NCBI RefSeq assembly: GCF_000091665.1
Contig: NC_000909.1
Location: 1,434,118 to 1,466,117, forward strand
Origin: Methanocaldococcus jannaschii DSM 2661
Lineage (GTDB): Archaea > AGJL01 > Methanococci > Methanococcales > Methanocaldococcaceae
Length of the DNA: 32,000 bases
Direction: 5' to 3'
In this document: positions 2,440-24,784 of the stretch, one piece after another
How the letters are laid out: each line of letters opens with the position of its first letter
Numbering within the stretch: the stretch's first letter is position 1
Notes under the pieces: model-generated
What the model saw: the letters and a program-made list of their open reading frames with translations, nothing else
Told to the model about the DNA's origin: nothing
Databases searched by the model: none
Made by a program: the position numbers and the translations under genes

Positions 2440-2889
2440 ATGAACAAAAACAAAATAAAAAAAAGGGGACAGTTATCTGTTGATTTTGTACTTGCAATAT
2501 TATTTTTAATGTTGGTTTCACTGTTTATTTATTACAATGCACTTACATTTACAAATAACACTACGGATGCTTTGATAGTGGATAGGATGTACAGTATAGC
2601 CGATACATTTGAGAACTATGCAATCCTTTCATATACAAAAAATGAAACAATAGTTTTGAAATTAAAACCTATTGGAGATTTGGGGTATGTAATACATGTC
2701 TCGAATAAAATTATTAATGTGAGTTATAAAACCCTTATCGTATTTACCCCAACAGATAACGGTGTCATAATTTCTGGAAGCAATATAGAAACTGCCCCAG
2801 TTGATATTGGAAAAAATATAAGCATAACTGTGACTATTGATAAAAATAATATAACAATATGTAAAGAATTGACAATAAATATAACTTAA
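2440..2889 (+). CDS. Class III signal peptide (type IV pilin-like) protein
   Basis: The ATG at 2440 is preceded by aaagagg. N-terminus [10 protein letters not shown]|[22 protein letters not shown]: basic n-region, Gly at -1, Gln at +1, acidic residue at +5, then a hydrophobic helix (DUF361/UPF0333-like). The upstream GTG start at 2335 would lie almost on the IS end and adds a low-complexity extension. Confidence 0.7.
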
Positions 2890-2906: not shown

Positions 2907-5900
2907 ATGAAACTTTTAAAGATTTTAATGCCATTAATCATTCTTGGTATAATTTCAATAGTAAATGGATATGTTATTGTGATACATCCTAACACTATGA
3001 ACATAACTAACAGTTCTGGAGTTTATAACACAGACCCCAATATCATTGCATACAATGTAAATGACACGATAACATTTGAAGCTTTAGCCCCCGATTCTGT
3101 AGCTCAGGATATATTAGATAATGGAGTTGTTAAATGGGATTTTGGTGACTTAACTGAGACTGATTATGGGAATTATAGAACAACCACCCATACATATACA
3201 TTTCCATTTCCTTATCCAGTAGCATGGTGCGGTTATCTAAATAATACTGGCTATTCGAAAGCTTTAACTTACAACTGGCTTGTTGTTGGAGATGTAGCAA
3301 ATACTAAGTATGTATTTAATGGCAGTCCGTTGAATTCAAAGACAAGTTGGGAGGTCTATTATAATAGCACAAATAATACTGTTATAATAAAATATTACTC
3401 AGAAACCCCTGTTGATAGGGAGTTTAATGGTTTAAGTGTTGATACAACTTCAGTAACTGTAAATGTTAGCAGAGATGAAATTGTAGAAGGAGATACTGTT
3501 AAATTTAATTTTTCAGTTAGTAGAAATATAATATTCTGTGTATGGAGTTTTGGAGATGGAACTTTTTCCTTTGAAAAATTTCCAGAACATACATATACAA
3601 AGTCAGGGCTTTATTATCCAAGAGTTTTAGTTGTTGATGATTCTGGAAGGGTAATGGTTGGATATTTGGATGAAGGAATTGAAGTAAAAAGAGCAAGAGG
3701 GGGGTATATTTACTGGGTTACAGGACCAAGTCACTATGATGGAGAGGCATACACTTATGTATATAATAGCTCTGGAGATGACAATAATAATAATGGAAAT
3801 GCATACACTGACCCATATAAAATAACCTATAAAGTTAATGACACTATAAAATTTGAAATGAGTGGAGCTTGGGGAGAATATTGGAAGTGGGATTTTGGAG
3901 ATGGAACAGAAACTCCTTATACATATAAGTCTTACTTTACTCCATCATATCATCAATATAAGTTTCCATTTATGTGGCCGTTCTTCTGGATGAGTTATGG
4001 GTGGGGTAGTTGGTGGAAATCAGATACCCTCAACTTTATAGTAGTTGACGATGTAGAAAACACAAGATATAATTTTTACCCTTCATCTGCTCATGATAAA
4101 ACTTACTATGATTATGAATATAATAAAGAAAACCATACGGTTAATTTATACTACTATTCAGATGTAATTTCGACTCCAAAATTTAATGTAAAATTGAGAG
4201 ATGGATATTATATAGATATAACAGCAACTGCTGACAAAACTCAAGTTAGTGTAAATGAAAACGTTAGATTTGATTGTTCGCCTTATGGAAATCCAATATT
4301 TATAATGTGGTGTTTTGGAGATGGGACATGTTCATTTGAAAAAAGCCCTACTCATAGATATTCTTCAAGTGGACTATACTATCCTCATGTATTCGTTATA
4401 GATGATAATGGAAATATAGAGGTTGGAATTCCACCACCAATTGGAGTTGGAGGATACAGCAGTTATCCTCAAATTTATGCTTCTCCTACAATAGCCCCTA
4501 CTTACTATCCAATAAATATAACAATAGTAGAGCCGGCATCGTGGACTTGGTATTGGCATCATATATATTTCGGAGATGGTGGCAGTGTTTGGATAAAACC
4601 CAAAAAATCGCCATATACTTTCACACATACATACACTTCAGAAGGGGTTTATCCAATATATATGAAAGTTTATACTGCAGAAAATATGAAAACAGTATAT
4701 GTAATAGACAATAAAAACCCAATAGCCAAACTCTATATTTATCCAAATCCTGCAAGTTATAAAGATACAATTTCCTTTAGTCCAATAAATAGTTATGACC
4801 CAGATGCTAATAGAATGATTCCAGAGTATAATTACTACGGCACCTTAATAGGGTATTATCCTATATCTCCAAACTCACCCATGGCAAGAATATATGGATT
4901 TAACTTAACAGTTTATGATTCTAATGGAAATGTTGCATGGAATTACTCATCAAATGAATTAACTATTATATCCAAAAGTTTTCCTATAGGGAATTACACT
5001 GCTAAATTGGTAGTTTGGGATGGAATGGGAGGAGTTAATTCAACAACTGTTAAGTTTAGTGTGATAAATAGACCTCCTGTGGCTCAATTTATATACTATC
5101 CAGATAAACCTGAACCTAATGAGGATGTAGAATTCGTTTCCCAGTCTTATGACCCGGAGGGTGAAATTGCATATTACATTTGGAATTTTGGAGATGGGAC
5201 CGTTATCAATACAACAGATACGATAGTTCATCACAAATATGAAAGACCAGGCTACTATACAGTTACCTTAACAGTATTTGACAAATATAACGCAAGTAGT
5301 TCAATATCAAAACAAATAGTAGTTGGGGGTATATTAGCTAACTTTACATATGAAATAATAAATGAAAATACTGTAAGATTTGAAGATACATCAGTTGTGG
5401 CCCCTGGGAAAATAATTAGTTGGCACTGGGACTTTGGAGATGGCAGCACATCAACAGAACAAAATCCTATCCATACTTACAGCAAGGAGGGGGCATACTT
5501 TGTAACCTTAACTGTTAAAAGCGATACAAACTTAACGGATAGTGTAACAAAGATTGTTATAATTTCTCCACCTCCAAAATATCCTCCAGTTGCTGACTTT
5601 ACGTATAAAGTAATAAATGGAACTACTGTAGAGTTTAACGCTAATTTATCATACGATGAAGATGGATATATTAAATATTATATCTGGGACTTTGGAGATG
5701 GAACACCAGCAAATACAACAACAAATCCAATTATAATACACAAATATAAAAAAGAGGGGGTTTATCCAGTTACCTTGACAGTTATAGATAATGATAATCT
5801 TTCAGATTCAAGAACTAAGTTAATAAATATAGGAGAATCATTTATACATAGCGTTCCAATACCGCCATATATTGAGATATTGATAGTTATTTCAACAATA

Positions 5901-5936
5901 TTCTGTTTCTTCCAAATTATAAGGGGATTAAAATGA
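2907..5936 (+). CDS. Large secreted surface protein with >=8 PKD-like domains and a C-terminal sorting signal
   Basis: 1009 aa. N-terminal signal peptide [21 protein letters not shown]. Recurrent PKD signature W-x-FGDG-[ST] (WDFGDL, WSFGDGT, WDFGDGT, WCFGDGT, YFGDGG, WNFGDGT, WDFGDGS, WDFGDGT). C-terminus [27 protein letters not shown]: Pro-rich motif, TM helix, basic tail. Many N-x-S/T sequons. Confidence 0.9.
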
Positions 5937-6160
5937 AACCTAAAAAAATAATATCTAATAAAGCTCAAATATCATTAGAATTGGCATTATTGTTAGGTGC
6001 TCTTGTAGTTGCAGCATCTATAGTTGGATTCTATTATCTAAAATCAGTTACGAGAGGGACCTCTACAGCAGAAAGTATTTCAAAAAATATAACCTTAGCT
6101 GCAAAGAATAAAGCATTGGACAATATATACAAAGTGAAGAGGGCCTTAAATGGGCAATAA
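5933..6160 (+). CDS. Small type IV pilin-like protein (class III signal peptide, UPF0333/DUF361-type; resembles Methanococcus EppA-dependent pilins)
   Basis: 75 aa. [11 protein letters not shown]|[25 protein letters not shown]. Start overlaps the upstream stop (ATGA at 5933-5936), implying translational coupling. Confidence 0.85.
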
Positions 6161-6614
6161 AAATGCTATATACATACTTAGATTTTTAATATATTTTTTT
6201 ATATTTTATTACATTTTAAAAATGTTAGAAGGAAACATAATGGACTTATTAACAATAACCCTATCTAAACTTTTAAATTTGAAATTTTACAAGAATGAAA
6301 TTATAGTTGGCAAAAATATTATAGAGATTAGCTCACCATGCACATGTTCATTAGAAATGGCTTTATTTTTAGGTTATATCTTTGGGACTCCTGATGTTCC
6401 TATTAAATATAAAATCTCATATTCAGTATTTGGACTTTCAATTATTACTATCTCAAATATTTTGAGGATAATATTAATAATAAATTATTCAAATATGATA
6501 AATTATAATGTAGTTCATGATGTCATAAGTTTTATTATCTTCCCAATAGCTTTGTTCCTGAACTGGTTTTGGATATATTTATTAAAAATGAAAAAAATAA
6601 TTATGTTTAAATGA
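6150..6614 (+). CDS. Small polytopic membrane protein, exosortase/archaeosortase-family-like
   Basis: 154 aa with about 4 TM segments. Ordered Cys...Arg...His in hydrophobic context ([16 protein letters not shown]; [12 protein letters not shown]; [14 protein letters not shown]). Cys-to-Arg spacing is about 40 residues, as I recall for the family. Encoded next to a protein carrying a tripartite C-terminal sorting signal. Alternative starts exist at Met25 and Met31. Confidence 0.55.
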
Positions 6615-6624
6615 GGGATGGCAT

Positions 6625-8499
6625 ATGTTTAGAAAAATTGTTTCAAAAAGAGGGTATATATTTACTTATGAGGCAATAGTAATTGCCTTCATTTTCTTGA
6701 GTGTTTTTTATATAGGGTATATGGTTTATAGTCATAATATGCTCACAGCATTAGAGGAAAAGAAGGATACTGAAAAATTTCATAAAGCTTTGTTACTAAA
6801 AGATTATTTTTTAAGGAATAATAAATTTCCTGGAAAGTTTTATAACAAAACATATTTGGATAATTTTACAAATGAATTAGATATTAAAGAAAAAACTTTC
6901 GACTTATTTAATAATTTTAGTGAATATAAGGGATTGATTCGTTTTATAATTTATCCAAACATATATGATGAAGAACTTGACAACATTTCAGACGAAATTT
7001 GTGCAAATGATGGACTTCAGGCTATAACATATAATTTCAGTAGCAACACATTTAAAATTTATTCAAATGTAAATACTACATTTAACAACGCCAACCTAAG
7101 TATAAGTGGGATGGATTTAATTTACTTTAAAGAAAATGTATATATTCCAAAAATTACTGGAATGAAATATGGAGATTCTATAAATCTATATGGCTGTAAT
7201 GGAGACCACATTTACTTTAAAGTCAATAGCGAAATTATTTCAGCATCTGCGAGGGTTGTTACAAATAATGGTAATCCATTTATTACTTGGCAGAATTGGA
7301 GGTATGCTACTCCAATATTAATAATAAACAACCTAAATCAAAATTTAAATGATTATGATGTAAAAATTGTTTTTGATTCTCAAAGTTATATAAATTCTGG
7401 AGAGATGAGAACAGATTGTGGAGATGTAAGGTTTGTTGATGAAGATGGTAATCCATTAAGTTATTGGATAGAGCCAAATACAATAGATACTCCGCATACT
7501 GTCGCCTGGGTTAAGGTAAATTTAGCTCCAAATGAACATAAGCTAATATATATGCTTTATGGAAATCCAACAGCTACAACGACTGCAAATGGAGATAATA
7601 CCTTCCCCCTATTCTTTGATGATTTTTCTAAAGGTAATTTGGATAATACAAAATGGACTTACAACTTTAATAATCCATTATTTGTAAATGACACTTATCC
7701 AAATGGGATTAATTTTACTTATTTAAGTTTAGATTATACTTATTACAATAATCATAATTACATTATTTATGATATTAATAATACGCATATTTCCTCCATT
7801 AGTACATACTATCCAAATACTTCTGTAAGATTCCATGCAAATTTCCATAAGAAATATGAGGAGTGGGGCGGATTTTATATAAACATAAATGGAAATGACT
7901 ATAACAGAGAGGTTATAACTAACTATCACTGGGGAGGAGAGTGGCTAAGAGCTGAATCTTCTGTATTAAATCAAGATTACGATAGTTACATTATCTTACA
8001 AGACCCAGATTTATACGATAATTGGCACACTTATGAGATTCAAAGAGATGGAGGTAGTTCAGTGAATTTCATAATAGATGATGCCATATATAAAACCATA
8101 TATTCAAACATATATACTGGAGATTTACCAATTTCATTCTATGCAAGAAAATATGATTATTCAACAAAATATGGTTACTATCCTGTTCCTCAAGACGAAC
8201 AAAACGGAAATATTAGCATTGATTGGGTATTTGTTAGAAAGTATGTAGAACCAGAACCAACAGTAACGCTTCTATCTTCTGATGTCATTTTTACAGTAAA
8301 TGGATATATATACAAAAAACCATTAAAATCAGTATTTGACAATATAGATATAACTCCAAATTTAAATGTGGGGATTAATGAAATAAGGATTTTAAGCTCA
8401 CCTCTTCCAGTAGAGTTTTTAATTAAAACAAATGAAAACACTGATTTTTACTATTTAACACTATCACCTAACAATGTCACCATTGTGGTGAAACCATGA
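6625..8499 (+). CDS. Pilin-like-anchored DUF2341 + ConA-like lectin/glucanase-fold protein
   Basis: 624 aa. N-terminus [10 protein letters not shown]|[22 protein letters not shown] looks like a class III signal. The central segment [11 protein letters not shown]...[17 protein letters not shown]...VAWVKVNL...LYGNP matches my recollection of DUF2341. It is followed by [17 protein letters not shown] ... [11 protein letters not shown], typical of LamG/ConA-like beta-sandwich boundaries. Confidence 0.8.
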
Positions 8500-9032
8500 T
8501 TAATAGCGTTGATTTAGCAATTGGAACTGCCATTCTTCTCATAGGGATGGCATATTGGACAGTATCTATTGTCGAACATAACAACAATTATGTGGATATT
8601 GTAAAATCTGATTATATTTTTGATAAAGGAATAAGCACTATGGAACATCTATCAGAGGATGGAACTTTGCAAGATGCTGTTCTTTTATATTATTTTGATA
8701 GAGTTAATGATTCAAAAAAACTTTTAGAGGAAAGAATTCCACTTAAACATTATCTTCTTTATATAGATAATAACCTTCTAATAAATAAATCCAATGGGGT
8801 TAATAATAGTAATAGTGTATATATTTTAACAGTTTTAACTTTAAACAGAAGTGAAGGGTGGTATGTAATTTATGGAAATGAGGACTTTGTAAATATATCC
8901 AAGGAGAGGTTTCTTGACTATGATGACGCCTATAATTATCTAAAATATAGAAACTACGATATACATATGCCTGTGTATCTTTCAAAAAATGTATCCTCTT
9001 CAAGGGTTGAATTATATATATTAGGAAATTAA
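8496..9032 (+). CDS. Hypothetical membrane-anchored protein of the surface operon
   Basis: 178 aa. N-terminal hydrophobic helix [31 protein letters not shown] start/stop overlap with the upstream gene. No recognisable domain. Confidence 0.65.
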
Positions 9033-9042
9033 GGGGATTGCC

Positions 9043-10677
9043 ATGTATTTCTCTCAAAATGCGATAATTTTAGTTATGCTAATGTTTGTGATATCTGCAG
9101 TGTTTTATGCAACAATTGATTACAAAACAAAGGAAGTAGAGGATGAAATAAAAATAAAAGAAGTAAGTTTATATGAAAAAAATTTAATAAATACTATAGA
9201 TAGAAATATAGATAAAATTGTAGAAGATGCCTTTGTAAATGCAAGCTATAAAATAATGAAAGAACGAAAATTTTTTACAGCTTCAAGTGAGGCAGTTGCG
9301 TATATAACCAGCTATATAAAAAATGAAACGAAAGAATCACTAAATAATGTGAATTATGGCTACTCAAATATATCCTATAACATTAGTTCTGTTAAAATTT
9401 CACCTACATACGACCCATTAGTAGTACATTTATATTGTGAAATTGACATAAAATATTCAAAAAAATTAAATAATGGTGAGTTAATCGCATTAAAGCCAAT
9501 AGTCATCAACAGAGACATAAAATTATCAAGAATTCCTGACCCATATGTCTATTTAAATAAATTTTACTACACCTGGGGTTATGAAAAAAAGATAAATATA
9601 TATAATTTTCCAAATGATAACTACAACCGTACTTTCTGTATAATATTAAATAGTAGTAACTTTAACTATAGTGAAATGCATAACCCTCAATCTCCAACAG
9701 AGCTGAGAGTAATTGGCTGGGATTCAGTAAGTAACAAAATTATTCTTTTACCTTACTGGGTTCAAACCTGGAGAGAAGGAAATAACGATGTATCAGTAAT
9801 TTGGGTTAGAGCAAATAAAAATGAAATTTACAACTACAATAATGGGCAGGGGTATATATACATACTCTACAATTCAACTACTCCGGTAGATAGACAAGAC
9901 CCAGAACACACATTTATATTCTTTGATGATTTCAATTACTTTAACCCAGATAAATGGGATTCTGTTGGATACTTTATCATAAATAATAGTAAAATAACGG
10001 TAATTGCAGGAGCAGGTTCAAGCGTATATACAAAACAAACTTATGGAACTAGATATGAATTAATATTTAGAGCAAACTTTACTCCATCCCATGCCCAAAC
10101 TATAGGATTCTTTACACAATTAAGCGATAACGATGGAGTGGGTTGGGATATGTATGATTGGACTGGAAATAATCCAGAACTTTATATGAGAGTTGGATAC
10201 AGTGGAAGTGATATTGGGGATTATGTTCCTAATTCAAATAAATACTTAAATAAATTTTATATTTATGATTTAAAAAGAATTTCAACCACTGACTTAAACT
10301 TTACAATATTTAATGACACTTTGGATATTGAATATAGCAACTCATTTACTAATGGAAATAAGGGAAATAACTATCCAATTTCAATAACTGCTCTTATAAA
10401 TTTAAATACTAATGTTACAGTGGATTGGATATTTTTAAAAGATATAAATGATATTACAACTACCGTCCCTCCAATAGGTGTTGATGAATATCCAAATCTC
10501 GACTATAAAGAAGAAAAACCAAAAACATTTACTGGGACTATATACTATGGAGAACCAGGGAAATATATATTGGTCTATAATAGTACGTATTCTATCATTG
10601 GATTATATACTAACAAAACTGACTACTGGCTTTATCCAAATATGCCAGGATATAAACCACTTATAGAGGAAAATTAA
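9043..10677 (+). CDS. Membrane-anchored DUF2341 + ConA-like lectin-fold protein (paralog of 6625-8499)
   Basis: 544 aa. N-terminal TM helix NAIILVMLMFVISAVFYATI. Segment WGYEKKINIYN...LRVIGWDS...LPYWVQTW...VIWVRAN...ILYNST is parallel to the DUF2341-like core of the 624-aa protein. Then IFFDDFNYFNPDKWDSVGY ... VTVDWIFLKDI. Confidence 0.8.
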   Translation: MYFSQNAIILVMLMFVISAVFYATIDYKTKEVEDEIKIKEVSLYEKNLINTIDRNIDKIVEDAFVNASYKIMKERKFFTASSEAVAYITSYIKNETKESLNNVNYGYSNISYNISSVKISPTYDPLVVHLYCEIDIKYSKKLNNGELIALKPIVINRDIKLSRIPDPYVYLNKFYYTWGYEKKINIYNFPNDNYNRTFCIILNSSNFNYSEMHNPQSPTELRVIGWDSVSNKIILLPYWVQTWREGNNDVSVIWVRANKNEIYNYNNGQGYIYILYNSTTPVDRQDPEHTFIFFDDFNYFNPDKWDSVGYFIINNSKITVIAGAGSSVYTKQTYGTRYELIFRANFTPSHAQTIGFFTQLSDNDGVGWDMYDWTGNNPELYMRVGYSGSDIGDYVPNSNKYLNKFYIYDLKRISTTDLNFTIFNDTLDIEYSNSFTNGNKGNNYPISITALINLNTNVTVDWIFLKDINDITTTVPPIGVDEYPNLDYKEEKPKTFTGTIYYGEPGKYILVYNSTYSIIGLYTNKTDYWLYPNMPGYKPLIEEN

Positions 10678-11684: not shown

Positions 11685-12188
11685 ATGAAGGTTAAGGTGT
11701 TGGATGCTTCAGCTATTATTCATGGATACAACCCAATTATAGAGGAGGGGGAACATTACACAACCCCAGAAGTTTTGGAAGAGATAGAATCAAAAAAAAT
11801 TATTGTTGAACAAGCATTAGATTTTGGAAAATTAAAAATAATGAGTCCTAATAGGGAGTATATAAAAAAGGTTGAAGAAGTTGTTAAAAAAACTGGAGAT
11901 AATTTGTCTCAACAAGATATTGGTGTCTTAGCTTTAGCTCTAAATTTAAACGCCATATTATATACTGACGATTATGGCATTCAAAATGTAGCTAAAAAAT
12001 TAAATATTGAAGTTAGGGGAATAGCTTTTGAACCAACAAATAAAGATTTTATTTGGAGAAAGATTTGTGAAGGTTGTAAAAAACTTTATCCAGTAGATTA
12101 TGAAGAAGATATATGTGAGATTTGTGGTAGCCCTTTAAAGAGGAAGATGGTTAAATCGAGATTAAAGAAGAAAAGGAAGAAAAAATAA
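11685..12188 (+). CDS. PIN-domain + C-terminal zinc-ribbon endonuclease, Nob1-like
   Basis: Start moved to the ATG at 11685 (RBS taggagtgg upstream). The longer ORF from 11595 overlaps the divergent gene. PIN-like N-terminus MKVKVLDASAII...TDD. Zn ribbon CEGCKK...CEICGS. Lys/Arg-rich tail. Confidence 0.75.
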   Translation: MKVKVLDASAIIHGYNPIIEEGEHYTTPEVLEEIESKKIIVEQALDFGKLKIMSPNREYIKKVEEVVKKTGDNLSQQDIGVLALALNLNAILYTDDYGIQNVAKKLNIEVRGIAFEPTNKDFIWRKICEGCKKLYPVDYEEDICEICGSPLKRKMVKSRLKKKRKKK

Positions 12189-12309
12189 CTTATAAGAGGC
12201 ACTGCCGAGTGAAACGAGGCAGTGCATCCCGGGTATACCAATAGGGCGAAGCCCTATGGAGAGAAAGATGGTTAAATCGAGGTTAAAGAAGAAAAGGAAG
12301 AAAAAATAA
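12129..12309. repeat. Direct duplication of the Nob1-like gene 3' end (about 60 bp, period 121 bp) flanking a GC-rich hairpin island
   Basis: 12144-12188 and 12265-12309 are 45-bp copies with 1 mismatch, and weaker similarity extends back to 12129 and 12250. The intervening 12189-12249 is locally GC-rich. It has an 8-bp stem (12199-12206 with 12218-12225) and a 7-bp stem (12241-12247 with 12251-12257, GAA loop). Confidence 0.85.
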
Positions 12310-12707: not shown

Positions 12708-13391
12708 ATGATTTCTGTCATCTTAGTTAATCCAAAATACAGTGGAAATGTTGGTAGTATAGCAAGGGTTATGATGAATTTTGGATTTGAAGAGCTTAGA
12801 ATAGTTGGAGATAAAAGCATAATAAATAATGAAGCCTATATGATGGCAGTCCATGCAAGAGAGATTTTAGACAATGCCAAATTCTACAACACCTTTGATG
12901 AAGCTATAGGGGATTTAGATTTTGTTATTGCCACTTCAGGAGCAAGAGGAGGAGATAGAAATTTAAAGAGAGTTCCAATAACACCAAAAGAGTTGGCAGA
13001 TAAAATCTTAGAGGTTAAGGGAAACATTGGGATTGTCTTTGGTAGGGAAGATGATGGATTGAGAAATGAAGAGATAGATAAATGTGATTTGTTAGTTTCA
13101 ATACCAACATCTGAAAAGTATCCAATTATGAACCTATCTCATGCTGTTGCAGTTATTTTATATGAGATTTATACAAAAAAAGTTAGAAATAAATTTTTAG
13201 ATATAAATATGAGAGAGGCATCAAAAGAGGACAAAGAGCTATTGATAAGGAAATTTAATGAGTTTATTGACAAGAATGAAAAAATCCCAGAGCATAAAAA
13301 AGAACTCTGCAAAATAATCTTTAAGAGATTGGTTAATAGGGCTTTTATAAGTGGAAAGGAGGCATGGACGTTAATGAGTGCATTTAAATAA
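12708..13391 (+). CDS. trmJ: SpoU (TrmH/TrmJ) family RNA 2'-O-methyltransferase
   Basis: SPOUT motifs NVGSIARVMMNFG, IVFGREDDGL and IPT...YPIMNLSHAVAVILYE. An alternative GTG start at 12699 overlaps the upstream stop. Confidence 0.85.
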   Translation: MISVILVNPKYSGNVGSIARVMMNFGFEELRIVGDKSIINNEAYMMAVHAREILDNAKFYNTFDEAIGDLDFVIATSGARGGDRNLKRVPITPKELADKILEVKGNIGIVFGREDDGLRNEEIDKCDLLVSIPTSEKYPIMNLSHAVAVILYEIYTKKVRNKFLDINMREASKEDKELLIRKFNEFIDKNEKIPEHKKELCKIIFKRLVNRAFISGKEAWTLMSAFK

Positions 13392-13407
13392 AATTAGGGG
13401 AAAGAAC

Positions 13408-15338
<1,931 letters not shown>

Positions 15339-21104: not shown

Positions 21105-22529
21105 ATGGGAATCTGTAGATTAACAAAAAAAGACATTGAAGGAATTTTACATATTTTAGGGGGGATTATACAAATTATTGGAATATTTACATTAGTTCCA
21201 TGTATAGTGTCAGTTTATTACAATGAAAACACCTTTTTAAATTTTTTAATTCCAGGTTTATTTTTTTCTATTTTTGGATTTGTTTTAAAGAGAGCTACTA
21301 AACCAAAAAATTTAAAACTACATCATACCATGGTTGCCTCTGCATTGGCTTGGCTTATAGCTTCATTTATAGGGGCCATTCCTTTATATTTATCTATAGA
21401 TTATTTTTCTTATGTTGATGCAGTTTATGAAAGCATGTCTGCCTGGACAACAACTGGAATGACTCTTATTCCTAATGTTGAGGTTTTACCAAAATCTATT
21501 TTATTTTGGAGGAGTTTTCAGCAGTGGATTGGTGGAGTTGGAATATTGGTTTTATCAGCTCTTGTCTTAGCAAGGTCTGGAACTGTTGCTTATCTTTTAT
21601 ATACATCTGAGGCGAGACAAGAGAGGATAATGCCAAGTGCTATAGGAACAATAAAAACTATTATCTGGATTTATATTTTATACACTATTTTAGGGGTTCT
21701 TTTGTTATATTTATCTGGATTAAGTTTTTGGGATGCTTTAAATTTAACCATGACTGGAATATCTACTGGAGGAATGAGTATAAGCAATTATAGCTTTCCA
21801 TACAACGATTTTGCAAAAATTGTTATGATTGGCATAATGATGGTTGGAGGAGTTATGTCATTTTCAATACATCACAAATTACTAACGGGCAAGTATTTTA
21901 ATGACATTCAAACAAAGTATGCATTAATTGTTACTGCCTTTATTTCAATTATCATCTCAATAAAGGATAAAGTTCCAATAATAGATTCTCTCTTTACAGT
22001 AGTTTCAGCAATGACATCAACTGGATTCACAACTATAAATGTAGGTAATCTCTCATCCTTATCCCTATTTTTGATAATTTTTTTAATGCTAATTGGTGGA
22101 GGGGCAGGGACAACAACTGGAGGGGTTAAGATAATTAGATTTTTAGTTATACTGAAGGCACTTTTATATGAAATAAAAGAAATTATTTATCCAAAATCAG
22201 CAGTGATTCATGAACATCTTGATGATATGGACTTAAATTATAGAATAATTAGGGAAGCATTTGTTGTATTCTTTTTATACTGTTTATCTTCGTTCTTAAC
22301 AGCTTTAATATTTATAGCTTTAGGTTATAACCCTTACGATTCAATATTTGATGCTGTTTCTTTTACCTCAAATATAGGCATATCTTTAGGGGTAGTTACT
22401 TTAAAAACTCCAGTAATTGGAAAAATAGCTGGAATTATAGCAATGTGGATTGGTAGATTGGAAATTATCCCAGTGCTTGTTTTATTTGCTACTTTGTATT
22501 TTAAAACTCTGAGACTTTTAAAAAAATAA
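21105..22529 (+). CDS. trkH: TrkH/KtrB-family potassium uptake membrane protein
   Basis: 474 aa, polytopic. Repeated pore-loop signatures: WTTTGMT, GISTGGMS, MTSTGFTT and GGGAGTTTGGVK. Confidence 0.9.
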   Translation: MGICRLTKKDIEGILHILGGIIQIIGIFTLVPCIVSVYYNENTFLNFLIPGLFFSIFGFVLKRATKPKNLKLHHTMVASALAWLIASFIGAIPLYLSIDYFSYVDAVYESMSAWTTTGMTLIPNVEVLPKSILFWRSFQQWIGGVGILVLSALVLARSGTVAYLLYTSEARQERIMPSAIGTIKTIIWIYILYTILGVLLLYLSGLSFWDALNLTMTGISTGGMSISNYSFPYNDFAKIVMIGIMMVGGVMSFSIHHKLLTGKYFNDIQTKYALIVTAFISIIISIKDKVPIIDSLFTVVSAMTSTGFTTINVGNLSSLSLFLIIFLMLIGGGAGTTTGGVKIIRFLVILKALLYEIKEIIYPKSAVIHEHLDDMDLNYRIIREAFVVFFLYCLSSFLTALIFIALGYNPYDSIFDAVSFTSNIGISLGVVTLKTPVIGKIAGIIAMWIGRLEIIPVLVLFATLYFKTLRLLKK

Positions 22530-22597: not shown

Positions 22598-23218
22598 ATC
22601 TCCATTCCGAAACGGTCTTATTTTAATAATAAATGACGTTGCAGTTGCATACAAGTTTTTAGTTAAATTATATTTCCATTCCGAAACGGTCTTATTTTAA
22701 TTATTTTAATTTTAATAAAATTTTTACAGATAAAAATGGAGGAGATAAGTTTCCATCCTCCAAGAGGTCTGATTTTAACTAAAGATGCACAAGGTTATCA
22801 ATTAGTAATAGTAAATGAAGATACTTCGTTTCCATCCTCCAAGAGGTCTGATTTTAACAAATGAATTTAGTTATGATTATCATAGCAGATTGTTTAACGT
22901 TTCCATCCTCCAAGAGGTCTGATTTTAACCGTTTAATGCTTATATTGCCGTGAAAGGTAAGAGCGGGCAGATTTCCATCCTCCAAGAGGTCTGATTTTAA
23001 CATTATTCATAATAACACCAGATGAAGCTGAAAAATTGATAAAACAGATTTCCATCCTCCAAGAGGTCTGATTTTAACAAAAATTTATATACTACCAATA
23101 CACTTATAATATACTTGTATTTCCATCCTCCAAGAGGTCTGATTTTAACACGAATTATTTAACAAAATATTTAGTAAAAGCATTTAAATTTCCATCCTCC
23201 AAGAGGTCTGATTTTAAC
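22598..23218 (-). CRISPR. CRISPR array, 9 repeats of two families; no cas genes in the window
   Basis: Two 30-bp repeats begin at 22598 (atctccat...) and 22672 (atttccat...) and share the remainder tccgaaacggtcttattttaat. Seven 31-bp repeats ([ag]tttccatcctccaagaggtctgattttaac) begin at 22749, 22828, 22899, 22971, 23048, 23119 and 23188. Spacers are 38-48 bp and all different. Minus-strand orientation is inferred from the ...GGATGGAAA[C/T] 3' end and the leader position. Confidence 0.93.
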
Positions 23219-23602
23219 AGGGCAATCATTCACAACATAATATATTTCATCACTCTTAATATTTAAGCTTTTCTATACCATATTTTTCTAAGGATAAATA
23301 ACCATCTTACAATATAAACCTTTTAGTATTTAAAATTTTATCTCTTTACTAAAACTAAGCATTTTTATCTCCTTAAATTCAAAAATTTAACTTATTAGTT
23401 AGAGAAATCTTATTTACTTACCTAATTAATCTCAATTTTTAAAAATCTAAATAATTTAATAAACTCAAATATTCTAAATAATCAAACCAGCAAACCCTTA
23501 GAAATTAAATAAAAAATTCTCAAATGAAGAAATAGATTTTATAAGCTAATTAAACATAGATTTAAATTTTTTCAACAAGACAAATATTATCTAAATATCC
23601 AA
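23219..23602 (-). promoter_or_regulatory. Putative CRISPR leader (AT-rich non-coding)
   Basis: About 384 bp without an ORF, abutting the homogeneous end of the array. The divergent repeats lie at the opposite end. This fits the long-repeat/short-repeat organisation described for M. jannaschii. Confidence 0.5.
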
Positions 23603-24784
23603 TCATTCAATTCTAACTGCATGAGCACATTTTTCAGCCAATTCCCTTGCCTTCTCTACAGAATCGGCATAAGCTAAAGCAACTCCCATTCTTCTACCAA
23701 CCTTTGCATTTGGCTTTCCAAACAATCTCAACTTAGTATTTGGAACTTTTAAAGCATCCTCTATATGATACTTTGGAGCATATTTATTTATCTCTGCCTT
23801 TATTACATGGCTTGCCCCTGGGTGAATAAGTTTTGTTGATACTGGCAAACCTAAAATAGCCCTAACATGAATTTCAAACTCACTCATTTCTTGAGTTATC
23901 ATTGTAACCATTCCTGTATCATGAGGTCTTGGTGAAACTTCACTAAATATAACCTCATCCCCTTTAACAAACAACTCAACACCAAAGATTCCATAACCAC
24001 CTAAAGCATCGGTAACCTTCTTAGCTATATCTTGAGCTTGTTCTTTTAATTCAGCAGACATATTATGAGGTTGCCAGCTTTCATGATAATCTCCATCTAT
24101 TTGGACATGACCTATTGGCTCACAAAACTTAGTTCCTTCAGCAGTTCTTGCGGTTAATAAGGTTATCTCATAATCAAAGTTTATAAATTCTTCAACAATA
24201 ACCCTATTTCCTATTCCTCTTGCTCCTTCTTTAGCTATCTTCCAAGCTTTCTCTATATCCTCTTCACTTCTAACTACACTCTGCCCCTTTCCAGATGAAG
24301 ACATAATTGGCTTAACTACACAAGGCAAGCCAAGTTTTTCTACGGCATCTCTCAACTCTTCTAAAGAATCTGCAAATTCATACTTAGCAGTTTTTAATCC
24401 TAATTTTTCAGCTGCCAATCTTCTTATTAACTCCCTATTCATAGTTATCTTTGTAGCTTCAGCTGTAGGAATAACAGTATAACCCATTTTTTCAGCATCT
24501 ATTAATGCATCTGTATTTATTGCTTCAATTTCAGGAACAATATAATCTGGCTCTTCCCTCTCAATAATTGCCATCAATGCATCGTAATCTTTCATATCAA
24601 TAACATAGCTCTTGTGAGCAACCTGCATAGCTGGGGCGTTTTGATACCTATCAACAGCTATACACTCAATTCCCAATCTCTGAGCTTCAATAACAACTTC
24701 TTTCCCTAACTCTCCACTTCCTAACAACAAAAATTTTATACTTCCTTTCAAAAGAGGTGTCCCAATTGCCATAAATTTCACCAA
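23603..24784 (-). CDS. purT: Formate-dependent phosphoribosylglycinamide formyltransferase (GAR transformylase 2, ATP-grasp)
   Basis: 393 aa. N-terminus [15 protein letters not shown]-grasp core [16 protein letters not shown] and EEFI.FD.E. An alternative start exists at Met5. Confidence 0.92.

Follow-up and report, generated by a model that had tools for sequence, protein, structure and literature searches.

The archaeosortase D locus

The stretch of DNA analysed here, hereafter the window, comprises 32,000 nucleotides (nt) of the chromosome of Methanocaldococcus jannaschii DSM 2661, and all positions are window coordinates unless another locus is named. Our subject is a trio of overlapping genes, which encode a PKD-repeat surface protein ending in a sorting signal (MJ1468), a small type IV pilin-like protein (MJ1469) and the membrane protein archaeosortase D (ArtD). 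The trio lies inside an operon of seven closely packed genes on the + strand, MJ1467 to MJ1472 plus ArtD, in which neighbouring genes are separated by gaps of 10-17 nt or else overlap by 4-11 nt. The elements of the trio are:

MJ1468, 2907..5936, + strand: PKD-repeat surface protein of 1009 residues, the predicted substrate of ArtD (RefSeq WP_010870988)
PIP-CTERM sorting signal, 5853..5933, + strand: 27 residues, corresponding to MJ1468 residues 983-1009 (TIGR04173)
MJ1469, 5933..6160, + strand: type IV pilin-like protein of 75 residues, whose gene overlaps both neighbours (UniProt Q58864, 'Probable pilin MJ1469')
ArtD, 6150..6614, + strand: archaeosortase D, a predicted four-helix membrane cysteine protease or transpeptidase of 154 residues (UniProt P81329 and RefSeq WP_010870990, 100% identical)

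The start codon of the pilin gene (ATG at 5933) shares bases with the TGA stop codon of MJ1468 as ATGA, and the ATG of ArtD sits 11 nt inside the MJ1469 gene. This trio is already known: it is curated in NCBIfam and named by RefSeq and UniProt in the M. jannaschii genome. RefSeq calls the enzyme 'archaeosortase D', MJ1468 a 'PIP-CTERM sorting domain-containing protein' and MJ1469 a 'class III signal peptide domain-containing protein, archaeosortase D/PIP-CTERM system-associated'. Haft, Payne and Selengut are said to have defined the archaeosortase D/PIP-CTERM system in 2012. The proteins of the window represent this same system; all three of its models (TIGR04175, TIGR04173 and TIGR04205) are matched over their full length and above curated cutoffs, and there is no difference at the level of sequence to the system as defined, which has been done in silico only. 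The archaeosortase subfamilies ArtA to ArtE have been summarised elsewhere (PMC6098224).

Enzyme, sorting signal and pilin

A sequence-only reading of this DNA had proposed that the 154-residue protein belongs to the exosortases and archaeosortases, and profile searches bear this out. Against the archaeosortase D model TIGR04175, whose cutoff is 125, it reaches 235 bits (E 3.1e-70) and spans profile positions 1-149 of 150. The general exosortase/archaeosortase signature TIGR04178 (cutoff 23) is matched with 40.1 bits, residues 58-145 of the protein aligning to profile positions 1-95 of 97. Weaker matches, all below cutoff, are to ArtE, XrtX, pacearchaeosortase and XrtG, and there is no match of any kind in Pfam. 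The Cys, Arg and His residues that the same reading had picked out, in this order, lie in the motifs SPC64TC66S, NILR106I and VVH123DV (codons at 6339-6341 for Cys64, 6465-6467 for Arg106 and 6516-6518 for His123). All three are invariant in 10 ArtD orthologues of 48-89% identity, and Cys66 is nearly so. Cys, Arg and His have been named as the suspected catalytic triad by the author of the family (bioRxiv 10.1101/2023.06.07.544157). The spacing from Cys to Arg, which had been put at about 40 residues as in ArtA, is indeed 42 residues in ArtD, compared with 41 between Cys173 and Arg214 of ArtA (PMC9263693).

A profile search for relatives of ArtD among 1.84 billion representative proteins showed the family to be very narrow, with only 4 clusters at E<=1e-30. 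Scores fall from at least 165 bits for true ArtD proteins to at most 63 bits for everything else, which amounts to about 110 relatives, mostly of 140-200 residues. In a divergent alignment of ArtD with 44 of these relatives, at 17-51% identity, no column is invariant except those of Cys64, Arg106 and His123; Asn103 is at least 90% conserved, and all 45 sequences match TIGR04178. ArtD had also been described as a minimal-core variant of about half the size of characterised archaeosortases. This stands, but it is a trait of the whole family (the ArtD model has 150 positions, those of ArtE, XrtX and pacearchaeosortase 153-168). Similar dimensions and the C/R/H core are shared by ArtE (TIGR04124), pacearchaeosortase (NF033505), XrtX (NF046081) and XrtG (TIGR03110), whose models span 153-187 positions, and these small systems likewise pair one enzyme with one adjacent target. 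ArtD differs from them in scoring far below their cutoffs, for example 49.4 against a cutoff of 95 for ArtE.

An AlphaFold2 model of ArtD, computed from a 10-sequence alignment (predicted local distance difference test, pLDDT, 84.5; predicted template modelling score, pTM, 0.79), has four long helices (residues 3-42, 62-79, 85-112 and 119-147) as well as a small sheet of three strands at 45-59, in line with the roughly four transmembrane (TM) segments that had been expected. Lysines cluster in the loop 80-89 (K86, K88) and at the C-terminus (KMKKIIMFK). Applied to the model helices, the positive-inside rule suggests a topology with both the N- and the C-terminus inside. As the loop and the C-terminus are basic, the Cys, Arg and His would be placed on the outside: helices 2 and 4 would begin on that side with Cys64 and His123, respectively, and helix 3 would end there near Arg106.

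At 9956-10420 of one comparison locus from a metagenome-assembled genome (MAG), L005, the called ArtD gene of 139 residues appears to have been cut short at its N-terminus during gene calling. When the in-frame ATG at 9956 (MDDKIKYLLNF...) is taken as the start, the first helix is recovered and the gene overlaps that of the pilin by 8 nt.

The predicted substrate, MJ1468, contains seven PKD stretches (Pfam PKD_4, 9.3e-83). By inspection, its N-terminus, with a Tyr after the putative cleavage site, resembles a Sec-type signal peptide, as do those of its orthologues. Its C-terminal residues 983-1009 match the PIP-CTERM model TIGR04173 with 49.8 bits (cutoff 30, E 2.4e-13, profile positions 1-27 of 27), starting exactly at position 5853, which supports the sorting signal proposed for the end of the PKD protein. 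The tail has three parts, an SVPIPP motif, a TM helix and a basic RGLK. P16, P18 and Y20 of the tail and the RGLK are invariant across 5 orthologous tails, and the pattern S[VI]P[IV]PxY...RGLK is kept even where the passenger domains differ, as in locus L007 (CARDB, PKD and DUF2341 in a protein of 1128 residues). The motif adjoins the helix without a spacer, a trait of signals that are cut by membrane-embedded enzymes (bioRxiv 10.1101/2023.06.07.544157). Since the motif is flush with the helix and the RGLK would be cytoplasmic, the motif is predicted to lie at the same level of the membrane as the triad of ArtD.

Elsewhere in MJ1468, residues ~1-560 (2907-4600) look like two copies of a module of ~255 residues, and a DNA repeat encoding W-x-FGDG (family D3) has copies at 3523 and 4288, 765 nt apart. 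N-x-S/T sequons are frequent in the full-length protein.

The pilin-like protein MJ1469 matches TIGR04205, the model for the class III signal peptide protein associated with the ArtD/PIP-CTERM system, with 122.8 bits (cutoff 65, E 4.1e-36), and Pfam PF04021 with 36.3 bits (cutoff 23.7). Its class III signal reads NKA|QISLE, where Gln+1 and Glu+5 are invariant. In all, the invariant residues are Q12, S14, E16, GFYY32-35, K37, N59, K60, I65 and K69, among them the GFYY-x-K with which the hydrophobic helix ends and the three lysines K37, K60 and K69.

For the comparison of gene order, loci were collected by exact-protein look-ups in genomes and MAGs of Methanocaldococcus and Methanococci; a contig scan with the ArtD alignment returned only two MAG loci. 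The eight loci fetched (L001-L008) represent five distinct gene sets. In five of five distinct loci, the gene for the PIP-CTERM protein is followed by those for the pilin and for ArtD, with overlaps between stop and start codons, and MJ1468 orthologues of 991-1128 residues occupy the equivalent position. L003 and L005 have the same seven-gene cassette in different chromosomal neighbourhoods; in L007 the cassette is permuted, yet the order substrate, pilin, ArtD is retained. It had been considered unusual that the pilin gene is translationally coupled between substrate and enzyme. The overlaps are present, but far from unusual they are a conserved rule in every locus examined.

Searches with the tail hidden Markov model (HMM) of the window and the eight fetched loci found one PIP-CTERM tail per locus, directly upstream of pilin and ArtD, with no second PIP-CTERM-like tail in the 32-kb window. 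Within these loci, the single target suggested by gene adjacency thus holds locally and is consistent with a dedicated one-to-one system, in the sense in which Haft has defined such 'dedicated' sorting systems (bioRxiv 10.1101/2023.06.07.544157). The surroundings of one distant small relative (P0043, 63 bits) were also checked and consist of housekeeping genes without a pilin neighbour. On this relative, the only distant one checked, we rejected the idea that mini-archaeosortases generally stand beside pilins; its lack of a pilin neighbour points to a link that is specific to ArtD.

Conservation of the RGLK needs a closer look at the level of DNA. In four of four loci examined as DNA (the window at 5919-5936 and the junctions of L003, L005 and L007), its codons read AGG-GGR-TTR-AAA, followed by TGA, with synonymous differences only. 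The same bases provide the pilin gene with a Shine-Dalgarno-like AGGGGAT and with its ATGA start. The region is therefore under a dual constraint, from coding and from translation signals, and since the ribosome-binding site (RBS) and start of the next gene are written into these codons, the conservation of RGLK is not purely a protein signal. This partly accommodates an explanation in which there is no processing at all: the C-terminal helix would be a permanent TM anchor, its conserved basic end would owe part of its conservation to the overlapping RBS and pilin start, and the 154-residue protein would act on the pilin or as a scaffold. We consider this very improbable, given the strong membership of both enzyme and substrate in their HMM families, the invariant catalytic triad and the invariance of P-x-P-x-Y, which a plain anchor does not need. 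Nor does the pilin offer ArtD a plausible role as prepilin peptidase. Class III leaders are cleaved at the cytoplasmic face by aspartyl prepilin peptidases, whereas the triad of ArtD is predicted to face outward; side and chemistry are both wrong, and we rejected this candidate function.

Proposed processing and acceptor

We read the locus as a dedicated archaeosortase D/PIP-CTERM sorting system, set within a seven-gene operon of pilin-like and DUF2341 proteins, in which the tail of MJ1468 is probably cleaved and the protein re-anchored; we put the probability of this reading at roughly 85%. Its direct basis is formed by the family memberships, the conserved triad, the conserved tail, the conserved gene trio and the overlapping codons. 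From these we infer cleavage, topology and the identity of the acceptor, and cleavage with re-anchoring is the most likely outcome by likeness to ArtA.

ArtA of Haloferax volcanii (HVO_0915), which acts on PGF-CTERM proteins, shares with ArtD the TIGR04178 superfamily, a tripartite signal with the motif abutting the helix, and a catalytic Cys with an Arg downstream. For both, a thioacyl mechanism comes into consideration, as has been proposed for ArtA with an amine-lipid as acceptor. There are also clear differences. ArtA is about twice as long as ArtD and has around eight TM helices. ArtD has four helices in 154 residues, and its best weaker matches are the small families with models of 153-187 positions. 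ArtA has from nine to more than 50 targets, marked by a PGF rather than a PIP motif, compared with one at the ArtD locus, and unlike in the ArtA system, ArtD and its substrate are encoded in one operon with a pilin gene always interposed. Experimentally, cleavage and lipidation of substrates have been shown to depend on ArtA (PMC9263693, PMC6098224, PMC7157517), and Cys173, Arg214 and Arg253 of ArtA are essential for processing (PMC9263693).

By analogy, MJ1468 would be exported via Sec and held briefly by its C-terminal helix, with the RGLK in the cytoplasm and S-V-P-I-P at the level of the membrane's outer face. The four-helix, intramembrane ArtD would recognise the PIP motif together with the helix, its Cys64, Arg106 and His123 being placed where helices 2, 3 and 4 reach the extracytoplasmic side. 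Cys64 would then attack the motif to form a thioacyl intermediate, releasing a peptide of helix and RGLK, and an amine nucleophile would resolve the intermediate, so that the PKD protein stays attached to the surface. The most likely nucleophile would be an amino-lipid, as proposed for ArtA in the form of archaetidylethanolamine (PMC7157517).

If water took the place of the amine, ArtD would be a release protease, hydrolysing the tail and leaving the PKD protein secreted or held non-covalently by the S-layer or a pilus. Endopeptidase activity is the only role firmly established for the superfamily, one-step transpeptidation being less certain (bioRxiv 10.1101/2023.06.07.544157), and in MJ1468 only ~15 residues, which form no Ser/Thr-rich linker, separate the final PKD domain from the PIP motif. 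The substrates of ArtA, however, are lipidated in an ArtA-dependent manner, and the Cys/Arg/His triad mirrors that of the sortase transpeptidases; we therefore regard mere release as unlikely.

Several points weigh against the proposal of cleavage and lipid anchoring. Literature searches on PIP-CTERM, MJ1468, MJ1469 and MJ1469.1 were empty, MJ1470 is mentioned a single time, in an unrelated paper on Patescibacteria, and we found no experiment on ArtD or MJ1468. We also found no solved structure that resembles the ArtD model. ArtD has no Arg after R106, so that Arg253 of ArtA is without an evident counterpart; the third residue is the invariant His123 instead. The conservation of RGLK, as discussed above, is confounded. 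Finally, simple lipid anchoring does not explain why the pilin gene always stands between substrate and enzyme.

The pilin connection and the surrounding genes

The strict interposition of the pilin gene and its coupled translation motivate a reading in which the pilin itself receives the substrate. The other four genes of the operon bear on this:

MJ1467, 2440..2889, + strand: pilin-like protein of 149 residues, first gene of the operon (RefSeq WP_064496837, 149 residues)
MJ1470, 6625..8499, + strand: DUF2341 protein of 624 residues (PF10102, 4e-28) with a pilin-like N-terminus, SKRG|YIFTYEAI
MJ1471, 8496..9032, + strand: protein of 178 residues whose N-terminal hydrophobic helix is conserved; its start codon and the stop codon of MJ1470 overlap as ATGA
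MJ1472, 9043..10677, + strand: DUF2341 protein of 544 residues (PF10102, 3e-16) whose N-terminus, MYFSQNAIILVML, is a hydrophobic anchor; the operon ends with this gene

The N-terminus of MJ1467 (KKRG|QLSVD, then a hydrophobic helix) is pilin-like by inspection, which is also what its class III assignment rests on, as the protein has no Pfam match; its orthologues begin MYLIKRKKGQISVDF and MLKRKLHTNKGQITIDA. The open reading frame (ORF) of 184 residues that starts with GTG at 2335 is probably over-extended, since the orthologues and the RefSeq model use the ATG at 2440. With this start, G|QLSVD is preceded by a short, basic leader, which is what a class III signal peptide should have. The N-terminus of MJ1470 is conserved among its orthologues. 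MJ1471, which has no family match in NCBIfam or Pfam profile scans, keeps its position and N-terminus in L003, L005 and L007, and MJ1472 is kept in the same three loci.

Two large DUF2341 proteins, several minor pilins and a pilin of ~70 residues are the hallmark of clade 1 (Epd-type) type IV pilus (T4P) loci in Methanococci, where the DUF2341 proteins have been proposed as tip adhesins (PMC4858521). A DUF2341 gene inside the epd locus was recovered in a transformation screen of M. maripaludis (PMC10133366). Judging by its genes, the set MJ1467 to MJ1472 is typical of such a pilus. Like the Epd-type system of M. maripaludis (EpdA-L, EppA), it combines a DUF361 pilin of ~70 residues and several class III-like minor pilins with two large DUF2341 proteins; it differs in that no ATPase, TadC-like platform or EppA/prepilin peptidase is encoded in the window. 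The 2016 survey by Makarova, Koonin and Albers that described these loci does not mention archaeosortases or exosortases in its main text, and the locus tags of our operon are absent from its supplements (PMC4858521).

In this setting, ArtD could be a transpeptidase that grafts its substrate onto a pilus: it would resolve the acyl-enzyme with an amine of MJ1469, for example that of Lys37, Lys60 or Lys69, and so attach the PKD adhesin covalently to a type IV pilin. Lys37 lies at the outer end of the membrane helix of the pilin, which would carry the adhesin into an Epd-type pilus, in convergence with the sortase-built pili of Gram-positive bacteria. Such a role would give meaning to the position of the pilin gene, which in every locus, even the permuted L007, separates substrate from enzyme and overlaps both at their stop and start codons, and to the curation of its family as 'system-associated'. 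The coupled translation suggests that MJ1469 is made in about the same amount as the adhesin, unlike an abundant major subunit, and MJ1469 has three invariant lysines besides the canonical assembly signature of Gln+1 and Glu+5. The neighbours, pilin-like and DUF2341 proteins, are typical of clade 1 T4P loci, and the pilin is missing beside the distant relative P0043, as it should be for a link specific to ArtD. On the other hand, the placement in one operon may merely reflect a common pilus/adhesin operon, and ArtA, the only homologue studied, yields attachment to lipid. We judge the grafting unlikely. More improbable still is its strongest form, in which ArtD does not anchor to lipid but is a pilin-directed transpeptidase that couples MJ1468 to MJ1469 and thereby loads a Sec-exported adhesin onto an Epd-type pilus. 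If true, it would be the first case of an adhesin bound covalently to a type IV pilin, and Archaea would have arrived by convergence at a counterpart of the sortase-built pili. With the class C sortases of Gram-positive pili the likeness is one of outline only (a Cys/His/Arg enzyme, a C-terminal signal built from a motif, a TM helix and a basic tail, and an enzyme gene linked to those for pilin and adhesin). They are not homologous to ArtD, which has no sortase beta-barrel domain in Pfam and is modelled as a helical, membrane-embedded fold; the pilin here is of type IV, and covalent joining is hypothetical.

As a discovery the locus adds little; what it still offers is a clean starting point for experiments. 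ArtD offers the smallest archaeosortase core (154 residues, four helices), a single adjacent substrate and a strictly conserved pilin partner, and a genetic system now exists for M. jannaschii. The system could settle whether enzymes of the exosortase family perform transpeptidation in one step, and with which acceptor, and whether they are connected to the biogenesis of type IV pili.

Directly upstream of the first gene of the cassette lies a DDE transposase of the IS6/IS240 type (1631-2275, - strand, PF13610, 7.7e-12). We rejected a reading of the cassette as a composite transposon, there being no second copy of the insertion sequence (IS) in the window. A tblastn search of 72,556 plasmids gave no match to ArtD.

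Farther downstream, the window contains a CRISPR-like array (clustered regularly interspaced short palindromic repeats) at 22598-23222, with seven repeats of ~30 nt, ATTTCCATCCTCCAAGAGGTCTGATTTTAAC, spaced 69-79 nt apart and preceded by two degenerate repeats at 22598 and 22672. It is flanked by a TrkH-like gene (21105-22529) and purT (23603-24784). No ORF of at least 90 residues lies between the array and either flanking gene; the ORFs of the window were not screened for cas genes.

At a distance of 2.7 kb from the pilin/adhesin operon, a GH114-domain protein (PF03537, 6.2e-29) with an N-terminal hydrophobic helix is encoded at 13378-14418; it may be a polysaccharide hydrolase, either secreted or anchored. 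A direct duplication of 60 nt, at 12129-12188 and 12250-12309 with 92% identity, copies the 3' end of a gene for a PIN plus zinc-ribbon protein; it covers the lysine-rich C-terminus and the stop codon, and the second copy falls into the intergenic region downstream.

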